Shown in pieces: positions 35,819-49,386 of a stretch of DNA of 64,000 nt (the first letter of the stretch is position 1; each line of letters opens with the position of its first letter). The notes beneath the pieces were generated by a model. The model ran no database searches, was not told the DNA's origin, and saw only the letters and a list, made by a program, of their open reading frames with translations. The stretch lies in assembly GCA_965223845.1 (NCBI GenBank), contig CBDCXR010000004.1:4352001-4416000 (forward strand), given 5' to 3'. Both the position numbers and the translations under genes were made by a program. This stretch comes from Planctomycetota bacterium. Lineage in GTDB: Bacteria; Planctomycetota; UBA8108; SXIK01.

Positions 35819-38800
35819 TCAGTCCCGCGGAGAGTTGGAAGTGGTCGCGACGATTTCGATCGCCGAGATCTTCGGCGCGCCGATGACCGGCACGAACTCG
35901 ACGTCGAGAGTTCCGTCGTCGACGACCGCGGTCCAGGGGTGAGCGTTGGCCACCGCAAACCCCTCCGAGGCAGGTTCGAAATTCGTCAGAGCCGGCCGCC
36001 GCTCGACACGTACGTCGAATCGGCGTGCACCCGGCTCGCGCAGATCGAGCTCGGCGAAATGAAAGGTGATCCGGTAGGTTCCCGCCGGCAGCGGAATCCG
36101 GTATGCCGGCCGGGAGTCCTCGTCGTCAAAGTCGCGAAACGTACGATAGAGAAGGTGATCGCCAGTGTTCCGGACCGGCCCTTGGAGCGTGTATTTGAGC
36201 GTGCTCCGGGAGCCTCCCTCAAAGAATCGGTCCCGCTCCCAGATCCGATCGCCGCTGTCCGTGTACCGCTCGCCGCCGCAGTTGATGCGAACGGTCCCAC
36301 GCTCGAGCTCTTCGAGTAGGGAACGCATGTCCGCTGCGTAGCCGTCGGTCGAGCTCGAAGGAAAACTCTCGAGCAGATCTCGCGGTCCTCGATGCAGATC
36401 GGAGATCGCCGTCTCGAGCCAAAGTGTCCAGAGCCTTCTGTCGTCGTGTCGGTTCAGAACCTCTTGCAAATACGCATCGGCCCGAACGAAATCTCCCTGA
36501 ATGCGCAGGCTTTCGATCCGTCGGAGATGGACCAGCACATCGGCGTCGGGTACGCCGGCCAAGCCTTCGAGAGTCTCGAGCGCGAGCTCGGGTCGGTCTC
36601 CGCGCTGCAGGAGGCGAGCGTCGAGGTAGGAGAGGACCGCCGGTGCATTCGCCGCCGTGCGCATTGCTGCTGCCAGCTCCTTCTCGGCGCGCGAGCCGGG
36701 CTGAACGTTCTCGAGCGCAGCATCGACGGAAGCGGCGGAGGCGACCTCGGGAAGGAGCTGCTCACGGAGCTCGGCGAGCGCCCGGAGACTCTTTCGGGTA
36801 ACGTCCGGAAGCAGGACGGCCTTTTCCAAGAGACGCACCGCGCCTCGAGCATCGCCACGCGCCGACGTGATCTCCGCGAGCGTGCAAAGTGCTGCGTCCC
36901 CCTGCCACTCCGAGTTCTCGACGGCGCGGACCGCGAGCGCGTAAGCCTGATCGCGATCTCCGTACGGAGCGTGAAAGAGAATCGAGGCTACTGCGGCTTG
37001 GAGATCATCTCGAATCTCCCGACTGGACTCCGCGATGCGGGTCAACTTCGCGACGACCTCGGCCGGAGGAAAGCGGCCGGAGTCCTCGATTCTCCGAAGC
37101 GATCTTGCCAGAAGGCGCTGCGTCCAGTGGGCTCCGCGCACCCGCGAGAGGTGATTCATCAGCGGATCGAGCGCCTTCAGAAACTCTCCTGCGTGAAACA
37201 GGGCGTGCCCGAACTCGCGTCGGGCCGACGCGTTCCGAGGCGCCAGTTCGACGGCTCGTTCGGCGGCTTCGATCGCCTCCGCGTGCTTTCCCAGCTTCAA
37301 TCGGGCGTTGCAGAGACCGGTATAGGCGCCCGATCGAGCCGGGACGAGCTCCGCGAGCTCGCCAAACGTCTCTTCCGCCTCGCGGTAGCGTCGCTCCTTG
37401 ACGAGCGTCCAGCCCAGCTGCGAGCGAACCGAGAACACGGACCCGAGCTCCTCGGCCTTCCGGATCGAAGCGGCGGACTCCTCGTCTCGATTCAGGTGTC
37501 TCAGGATCCGCGCGCGAGCAAGCCACCGTTCCACCCTCCGCTCGTCCAGCGAGATCGCGCGATCGATTACGGCGAGCGCCTCCTCCACCTTGCCCTGCAG
37601 AAAGCGAACCCGCGCGAGCCCGGTGAGACCCTTGCCGTTCTCCGGCGGCAGGGTCGACGCCGAGAAGAAGTGCTCGCCGGCCTCGTCGTACTTGCCCTCG
37701 TCCAGGCGACACAGCCCCAGGAGGACGCGCGGCAGTGCCCAGTTCGGATCGAGCTCGGTTGCGCGCATCGCGGCCTCGATGGCAGCCGTCGGATCCCGTC
37801 GCTCGTAGCAAACCATTGCGAGCGAGGTTTGGAGATAGCTGTCGTCCGGGGCCATGGAGACTCCGCGGCGTACGAGCTTCTCGGCCTCGTCGAGGCGGCC
37901 TCGGGAGTACGCCAGGATGCCTCCGGCGACGTGCGCGATCGGATGGGATGGATCGAGTGCGAGTGCACGATCCACGGCGTGCTGGGCTCCGGCGCGGTCG
38001 TTCTCTCTGAGGAGCGTCAACGCCAGAATCGCGAACGGAAACGGGTTCGCAGAGTCCAGCTCACAGGCGCGGCGGAGAGAACGGAGCCCTTCGGCTTGCA
38101 AGGATTCGTCGCGCCCATCCGACGAGAAAAGCCTTTCGAAGTAGACGGACCATCCCAAGACGGCGTGGGCTACGGGGTCGGCTTCGTTGAGCGCGATCGC
38201 CGAACGAGCTGCCTCGATCGCCTCGGCGGACCTCCACAGCCGGCACAGGAACACGGCGCGAAGCCGACGCGAGAGCTGCTCGCGCGAAATCCTGCGGCTC
38301 CAGCGAAGGGCGTGCTCGTACTGCCGCAGGGATTCGTACGTGATGGCGATCCACGCGGCGGCGATGTCCTTGTGCTCGACCATGTCGTGAAGGCCCGCGA
38401 AGGTCGCTTCCGCGCGAGACGGGCGTCCCCCGCGGAAGTACGTCTTCCCGAGAAGCAACCACGGTTCGAGCAGGGTCGGCCACAGGGCGCGGAGCTCGAC
38501 GAACGCGACCTCGGCTTCGTCGAGGGCTCCGGCGGCGAGCAGCGCGGCGCCCTTCGCGAGCCGCGTCTCGATCGACGAGCCGAGGAAGAGCTCGTTACCG
38601 GGCCCCTCCATTCGCGCGAGGTGGTCGAAGGCGCGTGCGACCTCGAGCCACCGCTTCTTCGTCTGTTCGAGGTCCCGGTTCGCCACGCGTTCCTCGGCTC
38701 TCCGTGCGGCGCGATAAGCGTCGAGCCAGGACGACGCCCACGAAACACCTTGCGACGCTCGCGACCAATCTTCGATGCGCTTCTCGTTGACGGTCTCCCC

Positions 38801-40372
38801 GGAGAGCCTCGCGCGAAGGATTCGAGCGGGAACGAAGCTCGGCTCGCTGCGGAGCACGCGGTCCAGCGCCTGGATCGCCTCATCATCCTTCCGCAAGAGC
38901 GCCAAGGCCTGGGCCCGGTGGTAACCGGCCTCCGGTCTCGCGGGAACTCGCTCGGCAGCCGCGGCGAGGTCCTGCACGGCCTTCGCGATCCCATCGGATT
39001 CGCTCGCGATCGCGACGAGTTGAAGATCGCCGGGCGTGAACCAGAATCGAGAGGTCACCGGATTGCCGATTCGGCCTTCCGCTCTGAGAGTCAGGTAGCC
39101 TGGCATCAGCCGAGTCAACGCGGAGCGCACCCGCGGTTCGTACTCGACCAACGCCACCCGCGCTCGCTCCTGGTGCGCGCTGATGGCAAACCAAGCAGCA
39201 GCGGGAACGAGCACGAGCAAGGCGGAGATCACCGCTGAGTTCAACGCGTTGCGCCGGACGAAACGGAGCGCCTTCTCCCATTTCGGCTGCGGGCGCGCCT
39301 CGATCGGATCGCCGCGCACGAACCGCTGCAGGTCCTGCGCCAAAGCCTCCGCGGTTCCGTATCGGTCGGCGGCGTTCTTCCGAGCGCACTTCAGAACGAT
39401 CGTCTCGAAGTCCTTCGGCACGCGAGGGTTGGTCTTTCGCGGCTCCGTCGGATTTCGGTCGATGATCTGAGACAGCGTGTCGGCGTGGTCCTTGCCCCGG
39501 AAGGGCGGACGACCGCAGATCGCCTCGTACATCGTCGCACCCAGCGAGTACACGTCGGTACGGTGATCGACGGGGACTTTCTTCCGACGCGCCTGCTCGG
39601 GCGACATGTAGAGCGGGGTGCCGACGAAATCTCCCGAAAGCGTCAGCGACTCTTGCCCTTCGAGGAGTGCCAAACCGAAGTCGAGGATCCGGAGTCGGCC
39701 GTCCTGGTCGAGAATGAGATTCGATGGCTTGATGTCGCGATGGGTGATGCCCTTCGAGTGCGCGTGTTGGAGGCCGTCGGCGACGTGGGCGAACGCCTTC
39801 GCCATGTTGTGGAAGTACGCGACCTCGTTCTTGGAGCCAAACGGCGTCTCCGTCTCAGACTCGGCGTCCTTTGTCCTGGCGAGAATCTGCGCCAGCGTCT
39901 CGCCCTCGACGAAATCCATCGAGTAGTACGGCGTGTTCTCCTCCTGCCCCATGCCGTGAACGCCAACGATATTCGGGTGGTTGAGCTTCGCCGCCGCTCT
40001 CGCCTCTCGCATGAAGCGGTGAAAGCGCTTGTCGTCGACCGCGACGGCACCGGGCAGAACCTTCAGCGCCACCTGTCGCTCGACGGAGTTCTGCCACGCC
40101 TCGTACACCACACCCATGCCGCCGCGCCCGATTTGGCGACGCAGGGTGTAATCGCCGAGGGTTCCGAGATCTCTCGAAGCCGCGGAATCTCGGTATACGT
40201 CTCGCAGGAGTCGCAGTTGATCAATGAGCTCTTGGGCCACTTCCGGGTGGTCCGCCCGGATAGTTTCGATGTCGATCGCCTCTCCGGCATTCAAACGCTC
40301 GACGTACTGAGCGAACAACGCTTCGACGCCGGAAGGCAAGCCGCCGTGAGAGCCGTTCGTTTTCTCACTCAT
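35819..40372 (-). CDS. Membrane Ser/Thr protein kinase with TPR repeats and a C-terminal malectin-like domain
   Basis: IGRGGMGVVY, VALK, HRDIKPSN, DFGLA, GTPLYMSPEQ; one TM helix; TPRs; RINCGG...W.RD, FHFAEL, PKISAIE. Confidence 0.92.
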   Translation of the reverse strand: MSEKTNGSHGGLPSGVEALFAQYVERLNAGEAIDIETIRADHPEVAQELIDQLRLLRDVYRDSAASRDLGTLGDYTLRRQIGRGGMGVVYEAWQNSVERQVALKVLPGAVAVDDKRFHRFMREARAAAKLNHPNIVGVHGMGQEENTPYYSMDFVEGETLAQILARTKDAESETETPFGSKNEVAYFHNMAKAFAHVADGLQHAHSKGITHRDIKPSNLILDQDGRLRILDFGLALLEGQESLTLSGDFVGTPLYMSPEQARRKKVPVDHRTDVYSLGATMYEAICGRPPFRGKDHADTLSQIIDRNPTEPRKTNPRVPKDFETIVLKCARKNAADRYGTAEALAQDLQRFVRGDPIEARPQPKWEKALRFVRRNALNSAVISALLVLVPAAAWFAISAHQERARVALVEYEPRVRSALTRLMPGYLTLRAEGRIGNPVTSRFWFTPGDLQLVAIASESDGIAKAVQDLAAAAERVPARPEAGYHRAQALALLRKDDEAIQALDRVLRSEPSFVPARILRARLSGETVNEKRIEDWSRASQGVSWASSWLDAYRAARRAEERVANRDLEQTKKRWLEVARAFDHLARMEGPGNELFLGSSIETRLAKGAALLAAGALDEAEVAFVELRALWPTLLEPWLLLGKTYFRGGRPSRAEATFAGLHDMVEHKDIAAAWIAITYESLRQYEHALRWSRRISREQLSRRLRAVFLCRLWRSAEAIEAARSAIALNEADPVAHAVLGWSVYFERLFSSDGRDESLQAEGLRSLRRACELDSANPFPFAILALTLLRENDRAGAQHAVDRALALDPSHPIAHVAGGILAYSRGRLDEAEKLVRRGVSMAPDDSYLQTSLAMVCYERRDPTAAIEAAMRATELDPNWALPRVLLGLCRLDEGKYDEAGEHFFSASTLPPENGKGLTGLARVRFLQGKVEEALAVIDRAISLDERRVERWLARARILRHLNRDEESAASIRKAEELGSVFSVRSQLGWTLVKERRYREAEETFGELAELVPARSGAYTGLCNARLKLGKHAEAIEAAERAVELAPRNASARREFGHALFHAGEFLKALDPLMNHLSRVRGAHWTQRLLARSLRRIEDSGRFPPAEVVAKLTRIAESSREIRDDLQAAVASILFHAPYGDRDQAYALAVRAVENSEWQGDAALCTLAEITSARGDARGAVRLLEKAVLLPDVTRKSLRALAELREQLLPEVASAASVDAALENVQPGSRAEKELAAAMRTAANAPAVLSYLDARLLQRGDRPELALETLEGLAGVPDADVLVHLRRIESLRIQGDFVRADAYLQEVLNRHDDRRLWTLWLETAISDLHRGPRDLLESFPSSSTDGYAADMRSLLEELERGTVRINCGGERYTDSGDRIWERDRFFEGGSRSTLKYTLQGPVRNTGDHLLYRTFRDFDDEDSRPAYRIPLPAGTYRITFHFAELDLREPGARRFDVRVERRPALTNFEPASEGFAVANAHPWTAVVDDGTLDVEFVPVIGAPKISAIEIVATTSNSPRD

Positions 40373-40988
40373 GCTCGCCCTCCGACGCCCGGATGGAGCG
40401 GTCGGGAAGGTGCAAGCTCTCGGTGTCTCCGAAAGCCGACTTCAAGTTCTCCAGTGCACGATAGAGAAGTCGTTTCACCGCCTCTGGAGACCGCCCCATC
40501 TCCTCCGCCGCTTGCTGAAACGTCAGCCCGTCCACCCGAACTCGCAGGATCACTTCGCGGTGTTCGGCGCTGAGCTCATCGAGCGAATCTTCCAGTCGCT
40601 TGAACCTCTCTTCGCGGCGCATCGCTCGACTGGGGGAAACTAGCTCGACGGGCATGTGCTCGTCCAAAGGAGCTCTCCGTTCACGAGCTCGCTTCCGTGC
40701 CAATTGCAGAGTGACGTTTTCCGCGATACCGCCTAACCAATGAAGGAGAGAGTCCCTTCCCCGCCATTCGAAATTCGCGATGGAACGATATGCCCGAAGC
40801 AGAGTCTCCTGGTAGACGTCATCCACCTCGACACCAAACACGATGCGGGCGCTCAGTCGGGACGCAACGAGCGCTCGTATTCGATTCCGGTCTTGCGAGA
40901 CGAGAGTCTCGAATGCCTCGCGGTCGCCGGACTTTGCGGCTTCGATCAGTCCCTGGTTGTCGTTCGCTTTGGTCATGAGGTTGTTCAT
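40365..40988 (-). CDS. ECF RNA polymerase sigma factor (kinase-associated type)
   Basis: GDREAFETL, DDVYQETLLRA, WLGGIAEN, SPSRAM, LSAEHREVILR; overlaps the kinase start by 8 bp. Confidence 0.9.
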   Translation of the reverse strand: MNNLMTKANDNQGLIEAAKSGDREAFETLVSQDRNRIRALVASRLSARIVFGVEVDDVYQETLLRAYRSIANFEWRGRDSLLHWLGGIAENVTLQLARKRARERRAPLDEHMPVELVSPSRAMRREERFKRLEDSLDELSAEHREVILRVRVDGLTFQQAAEEMGRSPEAVKRLLYRALENLKSAFGDTESLHLPDRSIRASEGEHE

Positions 40989-41512
40989 TCCATCTGCGTT
41001 ATTCCCACTGAGCGCCCAAAGGGTCGCGGAATCTCAGAAGATTCTCTGGCCCATTGTATTCCCGTGCTCCACGAGGCCGGAGCGACCAGTTGGGTGCACC
41101 CGATCAGTACGAGACTGGTGACGTTCGCAGGCTCGTTTCGCCTCCTCGGGGCGCCTCTCCACTCTGCCAAACGCGAGTTACGGCCACTCGAAACCGCTGC
41201 GCACGGCTCGAGATCGACAGGGAACGGAGGGTCTCGCTCAAAGCGCGAAGTCGCGGCATGCGCACTTTTCTTTCGAGTGAGCGAAATCTTTCGGCGTAGC
41301 TCGGAAGTCTAGCGATCGCGCTCTCAAGCGAGCGACGCGCAAGGGGCGGGATGGAATTCACGCCGCGAGAAAGGGAGAACTCGAACGACCGGTCGCGGGG
41401 GTACGAAAGATTCCTCACTCCGCGCCATTTTCCCCACCGCACCAATCCTCGAGCTGAAGAGCGTTCTCAGCCGATTCTCTATGGTAGGCTGACGTCGAAA
41501 AGGTGTTCGGTG

Positions 41513-44455
41513 ATGGTGTACGAAAACCCGCGCGAGCTGACTCGATCTGTTCCGGTGTGCCGCCACGAATGTTGCGGCACGGTAGGTACGCTCTGCCGCT
41601 GGTCCCGACGCATCGCCGCGCTCGCGCTCACGTTCGCCTTCCTCGTCTTCCTAGCGAGCTGCTCGCGATCTTCGAGCGGTCCGGGCGCGGGACTCGATCC
41701 TCTTCCGATCGCCGGCGGCGTGACCGAGATGGAACGCGTTGAAGAGCTCAGTGAGACGGTTGCCAACCGATTCATCGAGTTCTCGGACAAGGTTCGGAGG
41801 CGCGACTTCGACGCCGCGGCCGTCTACCTGGGCGAGGATTTTCTCGGCACTGCATTCGGCGCGTGCGCGGCTCAGCCCGCCGAGACGCTTCCGGTCGGCG
41901 TGACGAGAACGCGTTTCGATCCCGCGCCGGCACGCGCCGAGCCGGCGAACCGAGCGACTTTTCTCCGCTCGCTTCGCGAGTTTCTCTCTCCGCTCGAGTC
42001 GATCGAGTACGTCTTCTTCAAGACGCGCGGCGCCGAGTTCACCCCGGATGCGAACCGAGGAGTCCTCCGGATGACCGTGCAGATCATCGGCCGCGAGCCG
42101 GGCGACCGTCCGTTTTCACTGAACGGCGCCGCGGCCGCGGAGGCGCTCAAGGTCGGCGAAGCCTGGGTGCTCCGGCGATTCGTACTCAAGAGCTTGAATG
42201 TCACGCGGCGAGATTCACCCGTGTTCACGGACGTGGCGACTTCGGCCGGAGTCGCGTCGTTCGGCCCGCGACTGGGAACGGGCGACAACACTAACTTCTA
42301 TTGGCGGGGCGCGGCCACCGCCGATGTCGACGGCGACGGGTACTACGACATCTTTACGACGACCAGTCGGCGCGCGTGGCTCTACCGCAACCGAGGCGAT
42401 GGCACCTTCGAAGATGCGACCGGCGGATTCGGCATCGACGCGCCGGCGAACTCGACTGGACCGCTCTTCTTCGACTACGACCGGGACGGCGATCCCGATC
42501 TCTTCCTGGGCTACGTCGGCTGGAGGGTCGACGGCGTGCCCCAAGGACAGTCGCTTCGCCTCCTTCGAAACGAGGGCGGAAAGCGATTCGTCGACGTGAC
42601 CGACGCGGTCGGTCTCGGAAACCAATACCTTGAAGCGTTCAGCGCCTGCGCGTCGGACGTCGACGGAGACGGTTGGCTCGACCTCTACATCTCCGCCTAC
42701 AACCGACTCGACGCCGAGTACCCGAACTCCTGGTACCGGGCGACGAACGGCAGCCCCAACGCGCTCTTTCACAATCGCGAGGGACGATTCGTCGACATCG
42801 CCGCGGAGGCCGGAGTCGCGGGAACGGGATGGAGCTACGCGGCATCCTTCGCCGATTTCGACGAAGACGGTGACGAGGACCTCTACGTCGCGAACGACTA
42901 CGGTGACAACTCACTCTACCGAAACGAAGGCAGTCTTCGTTTCCGCGACGTCGCCGCCGAGCTCGGCGTCCTCGATACGGGAAACGGGATGGGAGTGACT
43001 TGGGGCGACCTCGACAACGACGGGCGCCTCGATCTCTACGTCTCGAACATGTCATCGTCCGCCGGCAACCGCATCCTCTCGCGGCTTCCGCGCTCCGGCG
43101 GGCCGGGCTCCGAGCGGTCGGAGGGCTCCAGCTCGCGGCACTCGAGCCGCGGCGTACAGAGCACACTCGCGAAGCTCGCTGCCGGAAACACGATCTTCCG
43201 GCAGTCGGGTGCGCGCTTCGAAGCGCTGCCGGCCGAGAAGGGCGGGATCGGCGCGTCGTGGGCCTGGTCTGCGGCCCTGCTCGATATCGACCTCGACGGT
43301 CGATTGGACATCTACGTCGCCAACGGATTCATCTCCGGCGACTCGCTCAAGGACACATGAAGCGTCTACTGGCGCCACGTGGTGGCGTCGAGTCTCGCGG
43401 ATGACGCATCGGCGAATCCCGCGATCACGACCGCGAAGATCGAGGCCGAACGCCCGGGAAGCGATCGCTACAAGCAGGACCATATGTCTCTCATCTTCCA
43501 GCGCGGGCTTTCGTTCAGCGGTTTCGAACGGAACAAAGTGTTCTTCGGCGGATCGGACGGCGGGTACGTCGACCTCTCGGACGTGTCCGGCGCCGACACG
43601 GATGCCGACGCGCGAGCGGTTCTGGTCGCGGATTTCGATGACGACGGCGATGCGGACCTCTTCGTGAACGCGATCCAGCGCGAGCAGCACCTGCTTTATC
43701 GAAACAATCTCGACGGAGTCGCACCGAACCGCTTCGCGAAGTTTCGGCTGCGCGCCGCGCGAGGTCATCCGGACGCGATCGGGGCGATCGTGCGCGTCCA
43801 TCGAGGGAGCGTCGTCCAGGCGCAAGTGCTCACCTGCGGCTCCGGCTTCGAGTCGCAAAACGCGCTCGAGCTCATCTTCGGGCTCGGGGGCGTCAACAAG
43901 GCCCGCGTCACGGTTCGCTGGCCCGGACGCGAAGAAGAGGATTTCGGCGAGATCGAGGCCGGTGGTCGCTACGTCCTCACCGAAGGCGCGGGAAAGCCGT
44001 CTCCCTTCGCGGCGAAGACGTTTCGGTTCGTCGACCCGGCTCCGAGAGGCGTCAAGGTACGACTCGGAGACCGTCTCGGTTCGCTCGCCCTCAAGACCGT
44101 GACGGGCGAAGACAAGACGCTCGATCTCACGCAGGAGAAGCGAAAGACCCTGCTCAATTTCTGGGCCACGACCTGCGCCTCCTGCGTGGCGGAACTCCCC
44201 GAACTGGCGAAACTTCACACCGGCGAGACCTACCGAGTCATCGCGGTGAACCTGGATCCACCGAGTCAAAGAGATGCGATTCTCGAACTTTGGTCGAAGC
44301 TCTCCCTCCCGTTCGACACGTTTCTCATCGGCGACAAAGATGCGGATCGCCTCTTCGACGTCGCTCGGATGGGCATTCCGCTCTCGATCGTCGTCGGGGC
44401 CGACGGACGCATCGAGCGCATCCTTCAAGGGCGCATTCGCGAGGGCCAGCTGTAA
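41513..44455 (+). CDS. Candidate selenoprotein: lipoprotein with FG-GAP propeller, ASPIC/UnbV domain and C-terminal TlpA-like CxxC domain (980 aa; Sec616 encoded by TGA at 43358-43360)
   Basis: ORFs 41351-43360 and 43379-44455 are in frame: NGFISGDSLKDT-U-SVYWRHVVASS. Six DxDxDG..D blades lie before the TGA and the seventh after it. Lipobox LASC; NFWATTCASC. Confidence 0.75.
43362..43407 (+). promoter_or_regulatory. Putative bacterial SECIS element
   Basis: Stem ACTGGCGCCAC-GTG-GTGGCGTCGAGT plus outer GCGTC/GACGC; apical GUG starts after an 18-nt spacer from the UGA. Confidence 0.6.
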
Positions 44456-44492
44456 GCGTCCCCGCGGGTTCGCCGCGGCTTCGCGCGGACTC

Positions 44493-47400
44493 GTGATGTT
44501 CGCGGCGTCGATGGCCTTTTCGGCCTGCGAGCCGGCGAAGACGCCGACGGAGCTCGAAGCCGCCGCGATCTCCGATCCGTACCGTCTGCGCAACCTCGGA
44601 AAGCTCCACGCCGATCGAGACTCGGGCGAGGGGTACTTCGACGCCGTCGCGTACTTTCGCCGCCTGGTGGAGCTCCAGCCCGACGACCCCGCCGACCGAC
44701 TGCGTCTCGCGAAAGCGATGCTCTTCGCGGAAGAACCCCAGCGATCCGGCGCCGACGCCGAAGGCGAAGAGAGCGCGCGAGCGCGCGCCGCCGCGAGAAC
44801 GGACGAGGCGAAGCGCCAGCTCGAGGCGGCCCGGCGACTCTTCGGCGACGAGGTCCCGCCGGACGTGGACTACGTCGAGGGACTCATCGAGCGGCGCCGA
44901 CAGCGCTACGTCGAAGCCGCGGCGGCATTTCGCCGAGTGACCGAGCAACGGCCGCGACACGGTTTCGCTTGGTTTCAGCGGGGGCGGATGAACGAAGAAG
45001 CGGGGAATCTCGAAGAAGCCTTGAATTGCTACTCGCGGCTCGTCGAGATCGACGCGACGCACCGAAGCGGCGTCTACCGTCTCGCCACGCTTCTCACGCG
45101 GCTCGAGCGAAAGGACGAAGCGAAGCGTGCGTTCGATCTCTTCGCAAAGATCCCGAAGAGTGAGCACACCGAGAACGAGAAATGCGACCTGACCGCGATC
45201 ACGCTCCGGCCGTCGGGAGGCGAACGGGACGAACTACCGGGAGCCGAGCTCCGCTGGGCAGACGTCACCGCAAAGCACTTTCCCCACGGAGCACCCGAGG
45301 GAGTGAGCCGCGCGTTTCCCCTCTGGCTCGGATCGCCGAAGGACGTCGCATCTCTCGAGGCGGCCCTTCTTCTCATCGGCCCGAGCGTCGCGGACCGCGA
45401 ATCGGGTGCACGGATTCTCACGCACGACGGAGATCGACTCGCTGTCGCCCCCACGACCGACCAGCTCGCCGGGGCGATCGCCGGCATCAACGACGCGGCG
45501 GTGTGCGATCTCGACGGCGACCGGCGCCATGACGTCGTCCTCGTCTCTGAGGCGGGAATCCAAGTCTTTCGCGGCGCGGAGCCGCGAGGATTCGAGCTCG
45601 TCGAGGCGCTCGCGATCGAACGAACGCCCGGGACCATCGAACACGTCCGCCCCTACGATGCCGACCACGACGGAGACCTCGACCTCGTCGTCATCGTGCG
45701 CCGAGACGGACGCGCGCACGCTTCGATTCTACGGAACAACGGAGTCGACGACGGCGTCTCGTTCACCGAGCTGACCCCGTTCGAAGGTCTCTCGATCGTT
45801 TCGGACCCGGAAGTGCGGCGCTTCTCGGTCGACGCGCACGACGTCGATCAGGCGAACGATATCGACTTCGTCTTCGCGGGCGGAGATCCCGGCGTCCAGG
45901 CGTTCCTCAACAAGCGAGGTGAGGGCTTCGAGCGCGTAGCTCTCCCCGAGCTCGGCCGCCATGATCGCGTGCTCGTCGAGGACTTCGACGGCGATGGCGC
46001 GCCCGACTTCTTCGCGACCGGAGCCGATCCCGGCTGGACGATCGCGATGAACTCGGACCAGTACGGAAATCCTTACCGGCTCAGACTGGACGCTCCCATT
46101 TCCGAACGAGCCCCGCGCTCGGGCGCCATTCACGATGCCGTTCTCGGCGATGTCGACAACGACATGGATACGGACGTCGTGCTCGCCACCGATTCGGGAA
46201 TCGTGATTCTGCGAAATCGCTCGGGAGGAAAGCTCGTCGAGGAGAACGCGGTTCCGATCGCGAGCGCAAACGAATCGATGGCCGCTCGTACCTGCGAAGT
46301 CGTCGATCTCGATCTCGATGGTCGACTCGAGATCGTCGCGACCGACTCGGCGAGCCGCCTCGTCGTGCTCGAAAACGAAACGCCCGGACTGTCCGCCGGT
46401 TGGACGATCAGCCCCGTCGGCGGACGAGACAACACGGACGCGGTGGGAACGGTGGTCGAGCAGTTTCGCGGCAACCGCTACCAGAGCCGAATGATTCGCC
46501 GCGCGGGCGGGCTCCACCTCGGACTCGCTGGCGAGCGGCTCGACGGCGTTGACGGCCTTCGGCTCCGCTGGCCGCAGGGAATCGTGCAGGCGGAGCCCGC
46601 GCAGTCCATTCGCCGCGGCACGAAGGGCGAGAAGCAGCCGCTGTTTCGCTTCGACCAGAAAGCCGGGCTCGTCTCGAGCTGCCCGTTCCTCTACGCGCGC
46701 GGGCCGAGTGGTTTTCGCTTCCTCACCGACGTGCTCGGCATCGCGCCGCTCGACGAATGGCTCCCGGAGGGCGGCACACCGCACTACGACCCGGAGGAGT
46801 TCGTGCGAGTGCCCGGCGACGCCCTTGCCGCGTTCGACGGACACTACGAGTTCGCGCTCACGGAGGAGCTACGCGAGACGGCTTACCTCGATCGATTCGA
46901 GCTCATCGTCTGCGACCATCCGGCCGATCGGGAGCTCTATCTCGACGAAAGCACTCGCCAGGGTGTCTACGAACCGCTGCGCCTGATTGTCGTGCGGCAA
47001 GAGCACTTGACGCCGCCGACCAGCATCGAGCTCGAGTACGGAAAGGCGACGACAGACGACGTCGCGCGAATCGACGGGCGCTACGCGCACGGATACCCCC
47101 GCGCACCGAGTCAGCTCGCGGGTTGGGTCGAGCCGTTCGATGTCGAGCTCGAGACCGATTCGCCGGCTCGGGCTCTTCTTCTCACGGGACGCATCGCGTG
47201 GTACGACTCGACCGTCGTGTACGCCCTCTCCCAAAACGGTCGCGAATGGGGCCCCTATCGGCTCGAGCGCATCGAGGAAGACGGCCGGACGACGACGCTG
47301 GTCGAGAACCTGGGATTCCCGGCGGGCATGAATCGCACGATCGTAGCGGAGCTTCCCGCGGGATCGGTGGCCGCCGGTACGCGGCTCCGGCTTCGCGGTC

Positions 47401-47984
47401 ACCACCGGTTTTTGTGGGACCGCATCCTCTTCGCGCGAGACATCGAGCGCGTCGAGATCGAGAAGCGAGAGGGGGAGATCGATCTCGCGCGCGCAGGACC
47501 CGCGGGGCCATCGAGCATCCGGTTCCAGACCGTCGCGGTTTCCGATGCCCGGCTGTCGTTTCACGGCTTTTCAAGAACGAGCGGAAGCCGAGCGCGCCAC
47601 GAGCAAACGTACCACTACGCCGACGCGGCTCCGGACGACTCGTTCGCACCCGCGGTGGGCCGCGCCACTCGCTACGGCGACGTCACGCCGCTTCTTCACG
47701 AACACGATGACCGGCTCGTCGTCGTTCCGGCGGGCGACAAAGTCGAGATCCGCGTGCCGGCGGTCGACGAGCCGCCGGCGACGATGCGCCGCACGTTTTT
47801 CGTTCGAATCACCGGCTGGGCGAAGGAAGGAAGCTTCCACAACCCATCGGGAGGACGAATCCTCCCGCTCCCGCGAAAGGACATGACGCGCTATCCGCCC
47901 GGCGCGGAGGTTGCTGACGATCCCGAATACGTCGAGTACCTGAACGCCTACCAGACTCGCTGGATTCGACGCCGCTCACCATGA
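44493..47984 (+). CDS. TPR + FG-GAP + ASPIC/UnbV-type lipoprotein
   Basis: AFSAC lipobox-like; N-terminal TPRs; multiple DxDxDG repeats; LRWPQG, SSCPFLY, LTEELRETAYLD, RYGDVTPLL. Start uncertain. Confidence 0.85.
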   Translation: MMFAASMAFSACEPAKTPTELEAAAISDPYRLRNLGKLHADRDSGEGYFDAVAYFRRLVELQPDDPADRLRLAKAMLFAEEPQRSGADAEGEESARARAAARTDEAKRQLEAARRLFGDEVPPDVDYVEGLIERRRQRYVEAAAAFRRVTEQRPRHGFAWFQRGRMNEEAGNLEEALNCYSRLVEIDATHRSGVYRLATLLTRLERKDEAKRAFDLFAKIPKSEHTENEKCDLTAITLRPSGGERDELPGAELRWADVTAKHFPHGAPEGVSRAFPLWLGSPKDVASLEAALLLIGPSVADRESGARILTHDGDRLAVAPTTDQLAGAIAGINDAAVCDLDGDRRHDVVLVSEAGIQVFRGAEPRGFELVEALAIERTPGTIEHVRPYDADHDGDLDLVVIVRRDGRAHASILRNNGVDDGVSFTELTPFEGLSIVSDPEVRRFSVDAHDVDQANDIDFVFAGGDPGVQAFLNKRGEGFERVALPELGRHDRVLVEDFDGDGAPDFFATGADPGWTIAMNSDQYGNPYRLRLDAPISERAPRSGAIHDAVLGDVDNDMDTDVVLATDSGIVILRNRSGGKLVEENAVPIASANESMAARTCEVVDLDLDGRLEIVATDSASRLVVLENETPGLSAGWTISPVGGRDNTDAVGTVVEQFRGNRYQSRMIRRAGGLHLGLAGERLDGVDGLRLRWPQGIVQAEPAQSIRRGTKGEKQPLFRFDQKAGLVSSCPFLYARGPSGFRFLTDVLGIAPLDEWLPEGGTPHYDPEEFVRVPGDALAAFDGHYEFALTEELRETAYLDRFELIVCDHPADRELYLDESTRQGVYEPLRLIVVRQEHLTPPTSIELEYGKATTDDVARIDGRYAHGYPRAPSQLAGWVEPFDVELETDSPARALLLTGRIAWYDSTVVYALSQNGREWGPYRLERIEEDGRTTTLVENLGFPAGMNRTIVAELPAGSVAAGTRLRLRGHHRFLWDRILFARDIERVEIEKREGEIDLARAGPAGPSSIRFQTVAVSDARLSFHGFSRTSGSRARHEQTYHYADAAPDDSFAPAVGRATRYGDVTPLLHEHDDRLVVVPAGDKVEIRVPAVDEPPATMRRTFFVRITGWAKEGSFHNPSGGRILPLPRKDMTRYPPGAEVADDPEYVEYLNAYQTRWIRRRSP

Positions 47985-48075
47985 CTCCGGACTGATCGAG
48001 CGAGCGCTCTACCGCGGAGCAACGGGGCAACCGAAATCGAGGGGGGAAACTCTTTTTCTCGGAGTGTCGATCGTT

Positions 48076-49386
48076 ATGCGCCGAGCCGTGATCCCTCTAC
48101 TCATTCTCTTTCCCCTCCAGGACTTCTCCGCCGGCGAGACGCAGTCGACGTCGCGGGACGAGTCCCTCCAGCGAATCGAAGACGCCCTCGCCGAGGACGA
48201 GGGCCTCGATCCTAAGACGAAGAAAGCTCTCGAAGATCTAGTGGACGTACTCCGGGCCGACGGCGAGCGAGCAACGGGCCGAGTCTCGGGGGACGAGCCA
48301 CCCGAGGAGGCTTCGCTCTGGGAGAAGTTCATCGACGCGTTCACGCTCTACGGCGATGCTCGTTTTCGCTACGAGTCGAGTTTCGAGCTCGACGACAAGG
48401 CGGACCGCCACCGCGCAAGGCTTCGTTTGCGTCTCGGGGCCACCTATCGGCTTCTCGACGAAGTCGCCATCGGCGCGAGACTCGTCACCGGAGATCGAGA
48501 GGATCCCAATTCTCCGCATGTCACTCTCGGAGACGGCCTCAAGAACCTCGAAATCAGCCTCGACCGGGCGTTCATCAACTACCGGCCGTCTCGACTCGAA
48601 GGTGCATACCTAACCGGGGGCAAGTTCGGACACCCGTTCTACGCGAACCCCGTCTACGGCGAGCTGGTGTGGGATGCCGACGTTCAGCCCGAGGGAATCG
48701 TCGCGGGATACTCACTCCCGGAGCTCGGTCCGATGGCAAGCCTCCGCTTCACCGCCGGCGGGTACATCCTCGAGGAACGATCCTCGGTGTCCGATTCGTT
48801 CCTGCCGGTCGTCCAAGCGGCCGGGCGGTTCGAGGTCTCAGGCGACGTCAGCGCCACTGCGGCCGTCGGATACTACTGGTACACAAACGTCGACACTTCG
48901 CTCCTCGTCGAGGACAACGCCGGCAACGGAGTGGTGGATACGGACGGCGACGGATCTCCGGACGAGTACGATTCGGAGTTCGGGATCCTGAATCCCATCC
49001 TCGCCTTCACCTACAGCGGCTGGGACTTGCCCGTGACGCTCTCCGCGGAGTACGTCCTCAACACGGAAACCGGGGCCGAGGACAACGAAGGTTGGGCGGC
49101 CGGCATGGCCGTGGGAAGCACGAGAGCGAAAGGGGACTGGCGGTTCTACTACCAGTTTCAGGTGATCGAACAGGATGCCGTCTTCTCCGCGTTCGCGCAG
49201 GACGACTTCTTGTTTGCGACCAACCACCGGAGTCACCTCTTCGGCATCAACTACCAATTCGTGGACGAAATCGGGATCCACGTGTGGGGCCTGGTCTCGC
49301 AGCGCGACGAGACGTTCTCGAGCGCGACCGCCGACAGCGACAAGGGGCAGTGGCGAGTGCGCGCGGACTTGAACATCCGCCTGTAA
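48076..49386 (+). CDS. Putative porin (outer-membrane beta-barrel)
   Basis: YGDARFRYE, RARLRLRLG, LDRAFI, LVWDADVQPEG; ends with amphipathic strand VRADLNIRL. Confidence 0.8.
   Translation: MRRAVIPLLILFPLQDFSAGETQSTSRDESLQRIEDALAEDEGLDPKTKKALEDLVDVLRADGERATGRVSGDEPPEEASLWEKFIDAFTLYGDARFRYESSFELDDKADRHRARLRLRLGATYRLLDEVAIGARLVTGDREDPNSPHVTLGDGLKNLEISLDRAFINYRPSRLEGAYLTGGKFGHPFYANPVYGELVWDADVQPEGIVAGYSLPELGPMASLRFTAGGYILEERSSVSDSFLPVVQAAGRFEVSGDVSATAAVGYYWYTNVDTSLLVEDNAGNGVVDTDGDGSPDEYDSEFGILNPILAFTYSGWDLPVTLSAEYVLNTETGAEDNEGWAAGMAVGSTRAKGDWRFYYQFQVIEQDAVFSAFAQDDFLFATNHRSHLFGINYQFVDEIGIHVWGLVSQRDETFSSATADSDKGQWRVRADLNIRL

Follow-up and report, generated by a model that had tools for sequence, protein, structure and literature searches.

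We describe here a gene of a Planctomycetota bacterium (assembly GCA_965223845.1, contig CBDCXR010000004.1), which lies at positions 41513-44455 of the forward strand of the window, i.e. the 64,000-nucleotide stretch of DNA that was analysed (contig positions 4,352,001 to 4,416,000). Its 980 codons include one in-frame TGA and, judging from comparative evidence, this UGA (residue 616) is almost certainly read as selenocysteine (Sec), through SelB and a selenocysteine insertion sequence (SECIS), to give a single 980-residue lipoprotein with export predicted from its lipobox, as a preliminary description of this DNA had put forward. The Sec reading is supported by the presence of the Sec machinery, the occurrence of the TGA in all eight close paralogues and in 99 of 109 loci, the fit of a downstream hairpin to the SECIS model, and the TGC found in its place in family carriers without detected selA. 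We also regard it as probable that the protein works as an envelope reductase, which would be recharged through a relay by its own CxxC.

The translation of the gene yields 980 residues with a terminal TAA and a sole internal TGA (43358-43360; ...GDSLKDT*SVYWRHVV..., the asterisk marking the TGA), in agreement with the earlier observation of two in-frame open reading frames parted by this codon only. The public-run contigs X1 and X2 cover positions 41400-44600 in one piece with zero differing letters, and show the TGA, not a sense codon, at 43358. They exclude an assembly slip, yet they are not independent support, since the runs X1-X3 come from one sample, which is possibly the source of this genome. 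It had been anticipated that gene callers would split the gene, and databases do annotate the TGA form as two proteins; among the 120 best protein hits listed, 47 stop precisely at codon 616.

In a tblastn search of the genome, the eight best-scoring paralogues (E ≤ 2e-62) are interrupted once each, at the residue that aligns with 616; in all eight this stop is a TGA followed by Ser, the frames are open on both sides and a CxxC occurs downstream. The more distant CRTAC1-like genes of the genome lack the motif. Among 31 related genomes, 20 gave matches, and the one TGA is held by 70 of the 72 matches. A wider set of 109 loci (79 from the best 80 of 158 candidates and 30 from the related-genome search) contains at least one duplicate, besides two loci of this genome; of its 99 TGA 39-mers, 93 are distinct. 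Its site codon is TGA in 99 loci (96 by direct alignment and three after correction of a four-codon register shift) and a sense codon in ten (two Glu, three Arg, and Ile, Leu, Asn, Asp and Ala); TAA, TAG and Cys codons occur at the site in none of the 109. The proposed comparison of homologues bore out the conservation of the TGA and showed that Cys homologues exist and are rare. Going by record titles, with labels of metagenome-assembled genomes (MAGs) unchecked, the TGA forms occur in Planctomycetota, Acidobacteriota and Verrucomicrobiota, and in one or a few MAGs each under the labels Myxococcota, Bacteroidota, Pseudomonadota and Cryosericota. Two loci (L085:5186-7903 and L088:4876-8007) carry a second, tandem family copy directly downstream, with its own in-frame TGA and hairpin. 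Another locus, L139 (G113:C78), has the Sec-site TGA and an intact hairpin followed by two further TGA codons, 21 and 25 codons on, and is probably decaying.

The hairpin downstream of the TGA (UGGCGCCAC-GUG-GUGGCGUCG; +10 to +30, loop from +19; −13.7 kcal/mol) was judged by hand against the bacterial SECIS (bSECIS) model. As given in PMC13188914, this model comprises a loop of 3-9 nt with a G within the two initial positions, a stem of 4-16 bp, a distance of 16-37 nt from the UGA and a minimum free energy ≤ −7.5; with its 3-nt GUG loop, 9 bp, 18 nt and the above energy, the hairpin lies within all four of these constraints. Taken alone it is not above chance in GC-rich DNA (z −0.94; 33 of 200 dinucleotide shuffles fold as well), so its weight comes from conservation. 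The earlier mention of a strong hairpin with an apical GUG therefore holds for the hairpin and its GUG, which are present and conserved, but not for its strength. Compared with synonymous-codon shuffles, z is below −1 in 93 of the 99 TGA loci versus two of the ten sense loci, and the mean hairpin energies are −11.1 and −5.2 kcal/mol, respectively; i.e. the hairpin is kept in most TGA loci and mostly lost in sense loci. G19 and U20 are each conserved in 96 of the 99 TGA loci; however, a conserved Val codon begins with the very same two bases. More telling are the contrast at codon +8 (GTG in 85 of 99 TGA loci, GTC in seven of ten sense loci) and the stem pair 15:25, which is C-G in 43 cases, G-U in 17, A-U in 13, G-C in eight and U-G in two. 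The same genome offers an internal control, a formate-dehydrogenase-like gene (G000:C4:4984214-4984963) with an in-frame TGA (CSRA*HAP), the SECIS loop of which (GGUCU) also starts at +19.

The check for selA, selB, selC and selD found them all in the genome: the tRNA-Sec scored 68.1 bits (cut-off 47), and the selA, selB and selD matches were all above cut-off. ARAGORN made 58 tRNA calls, in which the only UCA tRNA is the tRNA-Sec; two 'tRNA-Pyl' calls were rejected for their poorly paired stems. It also reported two tmRNA genes (G000:C4:307037-307556 and 1957400-1957756), with a typical tag ending in YALAA in the second only. The selD match (G000:C4:5317241-5318161) lies within an 809-codon open frame with no internal stop, and is therefore probably a fusion and a Cys-type SelD. 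When 50 of the 69 genomes behind the TGA loci were tested for selA, 45 had it, and selB was found in four of the remaining five. Since the selA background is high, 121 genomes were sampled evenly across the phylum: selA occurs in 91, the family in 30 and its TGA form in 24, all 24 of them with selA (Fisher p 0.0009, a value overstated by the non-independence of kin and the inclusion of this genome). The family carriers without detected selA, G094 (91% complete) and G197 (86% complete), both have TGC and no hairpin (fold energies at the site of 0.0 and −0.3 kcal/mol), while the selA-positive carriers without TGA comprise two of this same Cys type and two with Glu or Asp. The loci L152, L154, L155 and L158 form a Cys-type subgroup (DYC-T-x-FW) with neither hairpin nor thioredoxin, which occurs with or without selA.

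The protein was modelled with AlphaFold2 on a 121-row alignment (predicted local distance difference test, pLDDT, 91.3; predicted template modelling score, pTM, 0.90). The domains listed earlier (FG-GAP, ASPIC/UnbV and thioredoxin) were recovered, together with an N-terminal NTF2-like domain that had been overlooked (best match 3rob_A: Z 14.5, rmsd 2.7, 129 aligned; further matches are NTF2-like folds as well). The propeller and ASPIC parts resemble murine CRTAC1 (9etn_A: Z 42.2, rmsd 2.5, 455 aligned; next match Z 30.9), and the fold neighbours of the propeller are CRTAC1, integrins and lectins. Its seven Ca-type DxDxDG loops are highly conserved and may bind calcium. In the model, blade 6 has 70 residues inserted between its second and third strands (599-604 and 675-679), and these form the helices 616-634, 636-640 and 651-663, residue 616 being the first residue of helix 616-634. 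The preliminary description was thus right in placing the Sec on the propeller and outside a classical CxxU motif, the modelled site being a helix start, not a plain loop. Likewise, the stop placed between blades 6 and 7 does fall between the sixth and seventh DxDxDG loops, but it lies inside blade 6 in the model, and termination there would indeed leave the fold incomplete, with only half of blade 6 and no blade 7. The conserved residues without a structural role fall together in corresponding loops (N461-D462, M493, M513-S515-G518-R520, W583, D614, W620, S669, E672, D699 and R701), which, from the FG-GAP topology, we take to make up one face opposite the Ca-type loops. A lipobox-like motif (our own pattern) occurs in 35 of the 60 TGA loci with enough upstream frame. 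The fused TlpA-like CASC domain (C888/C891) noticed earlier was confirmed by a Pfam redoxin match (residues 852-968) of 31.5 bits against a cut-off of 26.6, and its sequence relatives in the PDB are StoA, ResA, TlpA, DsbE and the PilB N-domain. A complex prediction between the thioredoxin domain and the rest of the Cys homologue P0005 gave a score of 0.00 and no interface, which weighs neither way.

Residue 616 and the CxxC co-vary in an alignment of 197 rows (99 Sec, 4 Cys and 94 other; the sense rows are mostly from protein databases and the TGA rows from DNA). An in-frame CxxC accompanies 78 of the 99 Sec rows, the 21 others having no in-frame thioredoxin, and three of the four Cys rows; among the 94 other rows, the CxxC occurs in eight, the region is present without it in 54 and absent in 32. 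C888 occurs in 79 of 79 Sec rows versus 11 of 57 non-Sec, non-Cys rows, and E894 in 97% versus 17%; S515 and S669 also relax where Sec is lost, and nearly all Sec rows have Pro956 (the cis-Pro position), Glu894 and an intact CxxC. On an unrooted FastTree phylogeny of the propeller and ASPIC parts (the columns of the site itself and two gappy rows excluded), the site changed at least 16 times between Sec/Cys and other states. In 12 independent pairs (starred branches), the CxxC goes with Sec/Cys in 8.7 and against it in 0.0 (median p 0.004, 0.002-0.039); when only rows with a thioredoxin region are used, ten pairs give 5.8 versus 0.0 (p 0.03, range 0.03-0.06). These changes point to a repeated loss of Sec, because one site is unlikely to have gained both TGA and hairpin repeatedly. 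In a blind mutual-information scan of 142 rows and 657 columns, 616-888 ranked fourth of all pairs and first for 616, a result not independent of the tree, since largely the same rows were used; the other top pairs resembled phylogenetic noise and were not taken for contacts.

A Cys is found at −1 or +2 of the Sec in 15 of the 23 TGA loci that lack a fused CxxC, versus none of the 89 that have one (four duplicates, one decaying copy and three truncated loci were set aside, and three loci were counted as fused although their CxxC domain follows a gap or a frameshift). The TGA members without a fused CxxC are L080-L097, L069, L142-L145 and L156, many with U-x-C or C-U; L142 and L143 have C-U at the site and keep a thioredoxin-like tail without CxxC. 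In L137 and L141, a Cys replaces the near-invariant Arg at +5. Within the loci of the thioredoxin-less clade, we found no separate thioredoxin gene, except in the tandem family copy of L088.

Together, the Sec, CxxC and adjacent-Cys patterns are those predicted by a relay in which the oxidised Sec is restored by C888/C891 or, in their absence, by a Cys next to it. The 616-888 co-evolution supports the earlier suggestion that the fused CxxC could re-reduce the Sec. We propose that the 980-residue protein would be exported and lipid-anchored, with the Sec at the N-terminus of the inserted helix of blade 6, presumably on the propeller face opposite the Ca-type loops. The substrate would be held in the conserved pocket, where the selenolate would attack its oxidised sulfur or peroxide group; C888 of the fused thioredoxin would then attack the oxidised Sec, C891 would resolve the mixed bond, and a DsbD/CcdA-type protein, whose membrane domain is encoded in the genome, would recharge the CxxC. 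Such a position, at the N-terminus of a helix and close to conserved serines, suits a selenolate acting as nucleophile. Our preferred type of substrate is an envelope molecule with an oxidised sulfur or peroxide group. For the family as a whole, we lean towards a large group of envelope selenoenzymes built on a CRTAC1 propeller and using an intrachain Sec-to-CxxC relay, in which Sec would have been given up many times for non-redox residues, usually along with the CxxC, leaving binding-only forms, and an adjacent Cys would often substitute where it is the fused CxxC that is lost.

Several observations weigh against this proposal. The CxxC is retained in eight of the 94 rows with neither Sec nor Cys. 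Conversely, 23 of 112 complete TGA loci lack a fused CxxC, and eight of these also lack an adjacent Cys; the adjacent-Cys pattern occurs in at least three lineages but provides only five independent pairs (p 0.25). Cys homologues are rare (four of the 98 sense-codon rows), and the four TGC loci of the phylum sample end without a thioredoxin. In most sense homologues the site is occupied by Asn, Ser, Glu or Arg and the pocket residues D614, W620, W583, R520, D699 and R701 are kept; the scaffold therefore does something without selenium. All nine tested genomes behind the sense-codon loci have selA matches, so the loss of Sec does not simply follow the loss of the machinery, and the sense locus L157 (Asp) still folds (−11.1).

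Two alternatives concern the decoding of the UGA. The UGA is read as Trp, Gly or Cys in some bacteria; yet a recoding as Cys or Trp, or a leaky read-through, is very improbable here, since TGA is the main ordinary stop of the genome (about 62%, 1317 of 2120 with a crude filter of open reading frames), its only UCA tRNA is the tRNA-Sec, the hairpin loop lies at +19 as in the formate-dehydrogenase-like gene, and the examined motif has no Trp in the 98 sense rows. Even harder to credit is a true stop with two cistrons, restarting at GTG 43379 or 43382, whose products would form one propeller, or else a pseudogene or a sequencing error. The two-protein database annotation and the in-frame GTG at codon +8 of so many TGA loci would fit a restart, but this GTG belongs to a stem arm of the hairpin, the SxxWR stretch between the TGA and the GTG is conserved as protein (with synonymous changes, and in uninterrupted homologues as well), and the second part would have no export signal. 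Moreover, TAA and TAG never replace the TGA in the locus set, and contigs of the sequenced sample confirm the codon.

If Sec is accepted, its role may be other than catalytic. Given that the pocket persists, with no redox residue, in most sense homologues, the strongest rival to the relay reductase is a propeller for ligand binding or adhesion whose pocket would be gated by the oxidation of Sec616 and reset by the fused CxxC; the 94 sense-codon rows that retain pocket and scaffold, the kinship of the fold to CRTAC1, integrins and lectins, and the long, by eye TPR-array-like, C-terminal extensions of six of the eight paralogues would suit such a redox switch, which equally fits the co-evolution with C888. 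We nevertheless hold it to be unlikely, because the costly UGA recoding in eight paralogues and the upkeep of CxxC, Glu894 and Pro956 suggest turnover. Less likely again is a soft-metal or metalloid ligand (Hg, Cu or As), by which the Sec, kept reduced by the CxxC, would capture or pass ions in the envelope. The C-U and U-x-C variants, the invariant M493 and near-invariant M513 of the conserved loops, and the metal-handling selenoproteins listed in the 2026 catalogue (PMC13188914) speak for it, but the neighbours of loci L020-L098 include no recurrent gene for metal resistance or transport, the recurring neighbour being another FG-GAP protein.

The recoding mechanism is the textbook one, and the protein scaffold is new: a Sec on a CRTAC1/integrin-like propeller, outside the folds and motifs of the catalogue consulted (PMC13188914). 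As in SelB-dependent genes with a SECIS inside the reading frame (formate dehydrogenase type), there is an in-frame UGA, a small loop with G then U 18 nt downstream, and selABCD. Unlike in these genes, the Sec is in neither a thioredoxin fold, nor a CxxU/UxxC motif, nor a molybdopterin site, few of the homologues have Cys instead, and one genome holds eight paralogues. Compared with CRTAC1/ASPIC-UnbV proteins (murine CRTAC1, PDB 9etn), with which it shares the seven-bladed FG-GAP propeller followed by ASPIC/UnbV, the protein adds the lipobox, the NTF2-like domain, the Sec-bearing helical insertion and the thioredoxin; NCBI names its uninterrupted relatives 'CRTAC1 family protein'. With the envelope thioredoxins TlpA, ResA, StoA and DsbE it has in common the thioredoxin fold, the CxxC at a helix start and the conserved Pro956 and Glu894, but here the fold is the C-terminal domain of a 980-residue protein and none of the NCBIfam cut-offs is reached (TlpA 33.3 bits against 230, ResA 34.8 against 170, StoA 31.1 against 210, DsbE 37.5 against 123). 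Neisseria PilB, with its TlpA-like domain fused to MsrA/MsrB, is an envelope reductase with its own thioredoxin domain. It offers an analogy of working, and its N-domain is weakly related to the thioredoxin part here (2fy6, E 0.003); in contrast to PilB, no MsrA/MsrB domain is among the five matched Pfam families, and the proposed catalytic residue is a Sec on the propeller.

In the accessible parts of the selenoprotein catalogues, FG-GAP, ASPIC, VCBS, CRTAC1 and UnbV have no entry among the 119 families of Table 1 of PMC13188914, and no family terms were found in deep-Sep (PMC12013277, text and four supplements) or BSepDB (PMC13326102, text and one supplement, possibly incomplete), nor were hits reported for the text of PMC13745706. 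No NCBIfam 20.0 model covers the Sec site; the matches are only thioredoxin models below cut-off at residues 848-979. A literature search, outside of which most subscription journals lay, found nothing linking selenocysteine to bacterial FG-GAP, ASPIC, UnbV or CRTAC1. The family is thus absent from the catalogues searched and may have been described elsewhere.

The features are collected in Table 1. A promoter scan returned no sites, and terminator-like sites numbered eight against 6.5 expected, with none between the gene and its downstream neighbour. The C-terminal region of this neighbour starts with the conserved SCPFL cysteine, has no Pfam match and stands beside 14 of the 109 loci, TGA or sense codon alike; the neighbour is therefore likely a partner of the subfamily, not tied to selenium. 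One further copy of this region occurs at G000:C4:3364022-3364819. Neighbour clustering of loci L020-L098 revealed no recurring redox or metal gene. Farther downstream lies a putative porin gene (48064-49386, forward strand; Pfam Porin_5, E 2.6e-32), and in L027 and L029 the family gene has a porin gene, similar by eye, upstream of it. On the reverse strand, positions 35819-40988 encode a divergent ECF sigma factor, then a Ser/Thr kinase-TPR-malectin protein.

Table 1. Features of the selenoprotein gene and its conserved neighbour (window positions).
Feature	Positions	Strand	Basis
Whole gene, 980 codons, one in-frame TGA	41513-44455	+	start likely ATG 41513; GTG 41510 also in frame
Predicted signal peptide ending in lipobox LASC (Cys50, 41660-41662)	41513-41662	+	sequence
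NTF2-like domain, residues 64-234	41702-42214	+	model (pLDDT 96.4); structure match 3rob_A
Seven-bladed FG-GAP beta-propeller, residues 235-733, seven DxDxDG loops	42215-43711	+	Pfam PF13517/PF01839; model; CRTAC1 9etn_A
Helical insertion in blade 6, residues 605-674, bearing the Sec helix	43325-43534	+	model
In-frame TGA, very probable selenocysteine 616	43358-43360	+	frame, paralogues, locus set, phylum sample
SECIS-like hairpin 18 nt downstream of the UGA; stem of 9 bp, GUG loop at 43379-43381	43370-43390	+	folding; consensus model (PMC13188914)
ASPIC/UnbV domain, Pfam match residues 755-820	43733-43990	+	PF07593 (E 4.1e-12); model
TlpA/ResA-like thioredoxin domain, residues about 850-980	44060-44452	+	PF08534 and PF00578 above cut-off; PDB relatives
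CxxC motif C888-A-S-C891	44174-44185	+	sequence, alignment
Conserved neighbour, 1162-residue predicted lipoprotein, TPR and FG-GAP repeats, C-terminal SCPFL region, no internal stop	44496-47984	+	

The family is common, with the TGA form in 24 of the 121 sampled phylum genomes and eight copies here, and it is mis-annotated as two genes. The scarcity of its Cys homologues may explain why it was overlooked by pipelines that look for Sec/Cys pairs, in which case more such families may be hidden. Our findings suggest a testable redox function for bacterial CRTAC1-like proteins. If the proposed reductase is real, an integrin-like fold would be put to a new catalytic use and, with up to eight copies per genome, Planctomycetota and neighbouring phyla would contain a major selenium sink that has been hidden.

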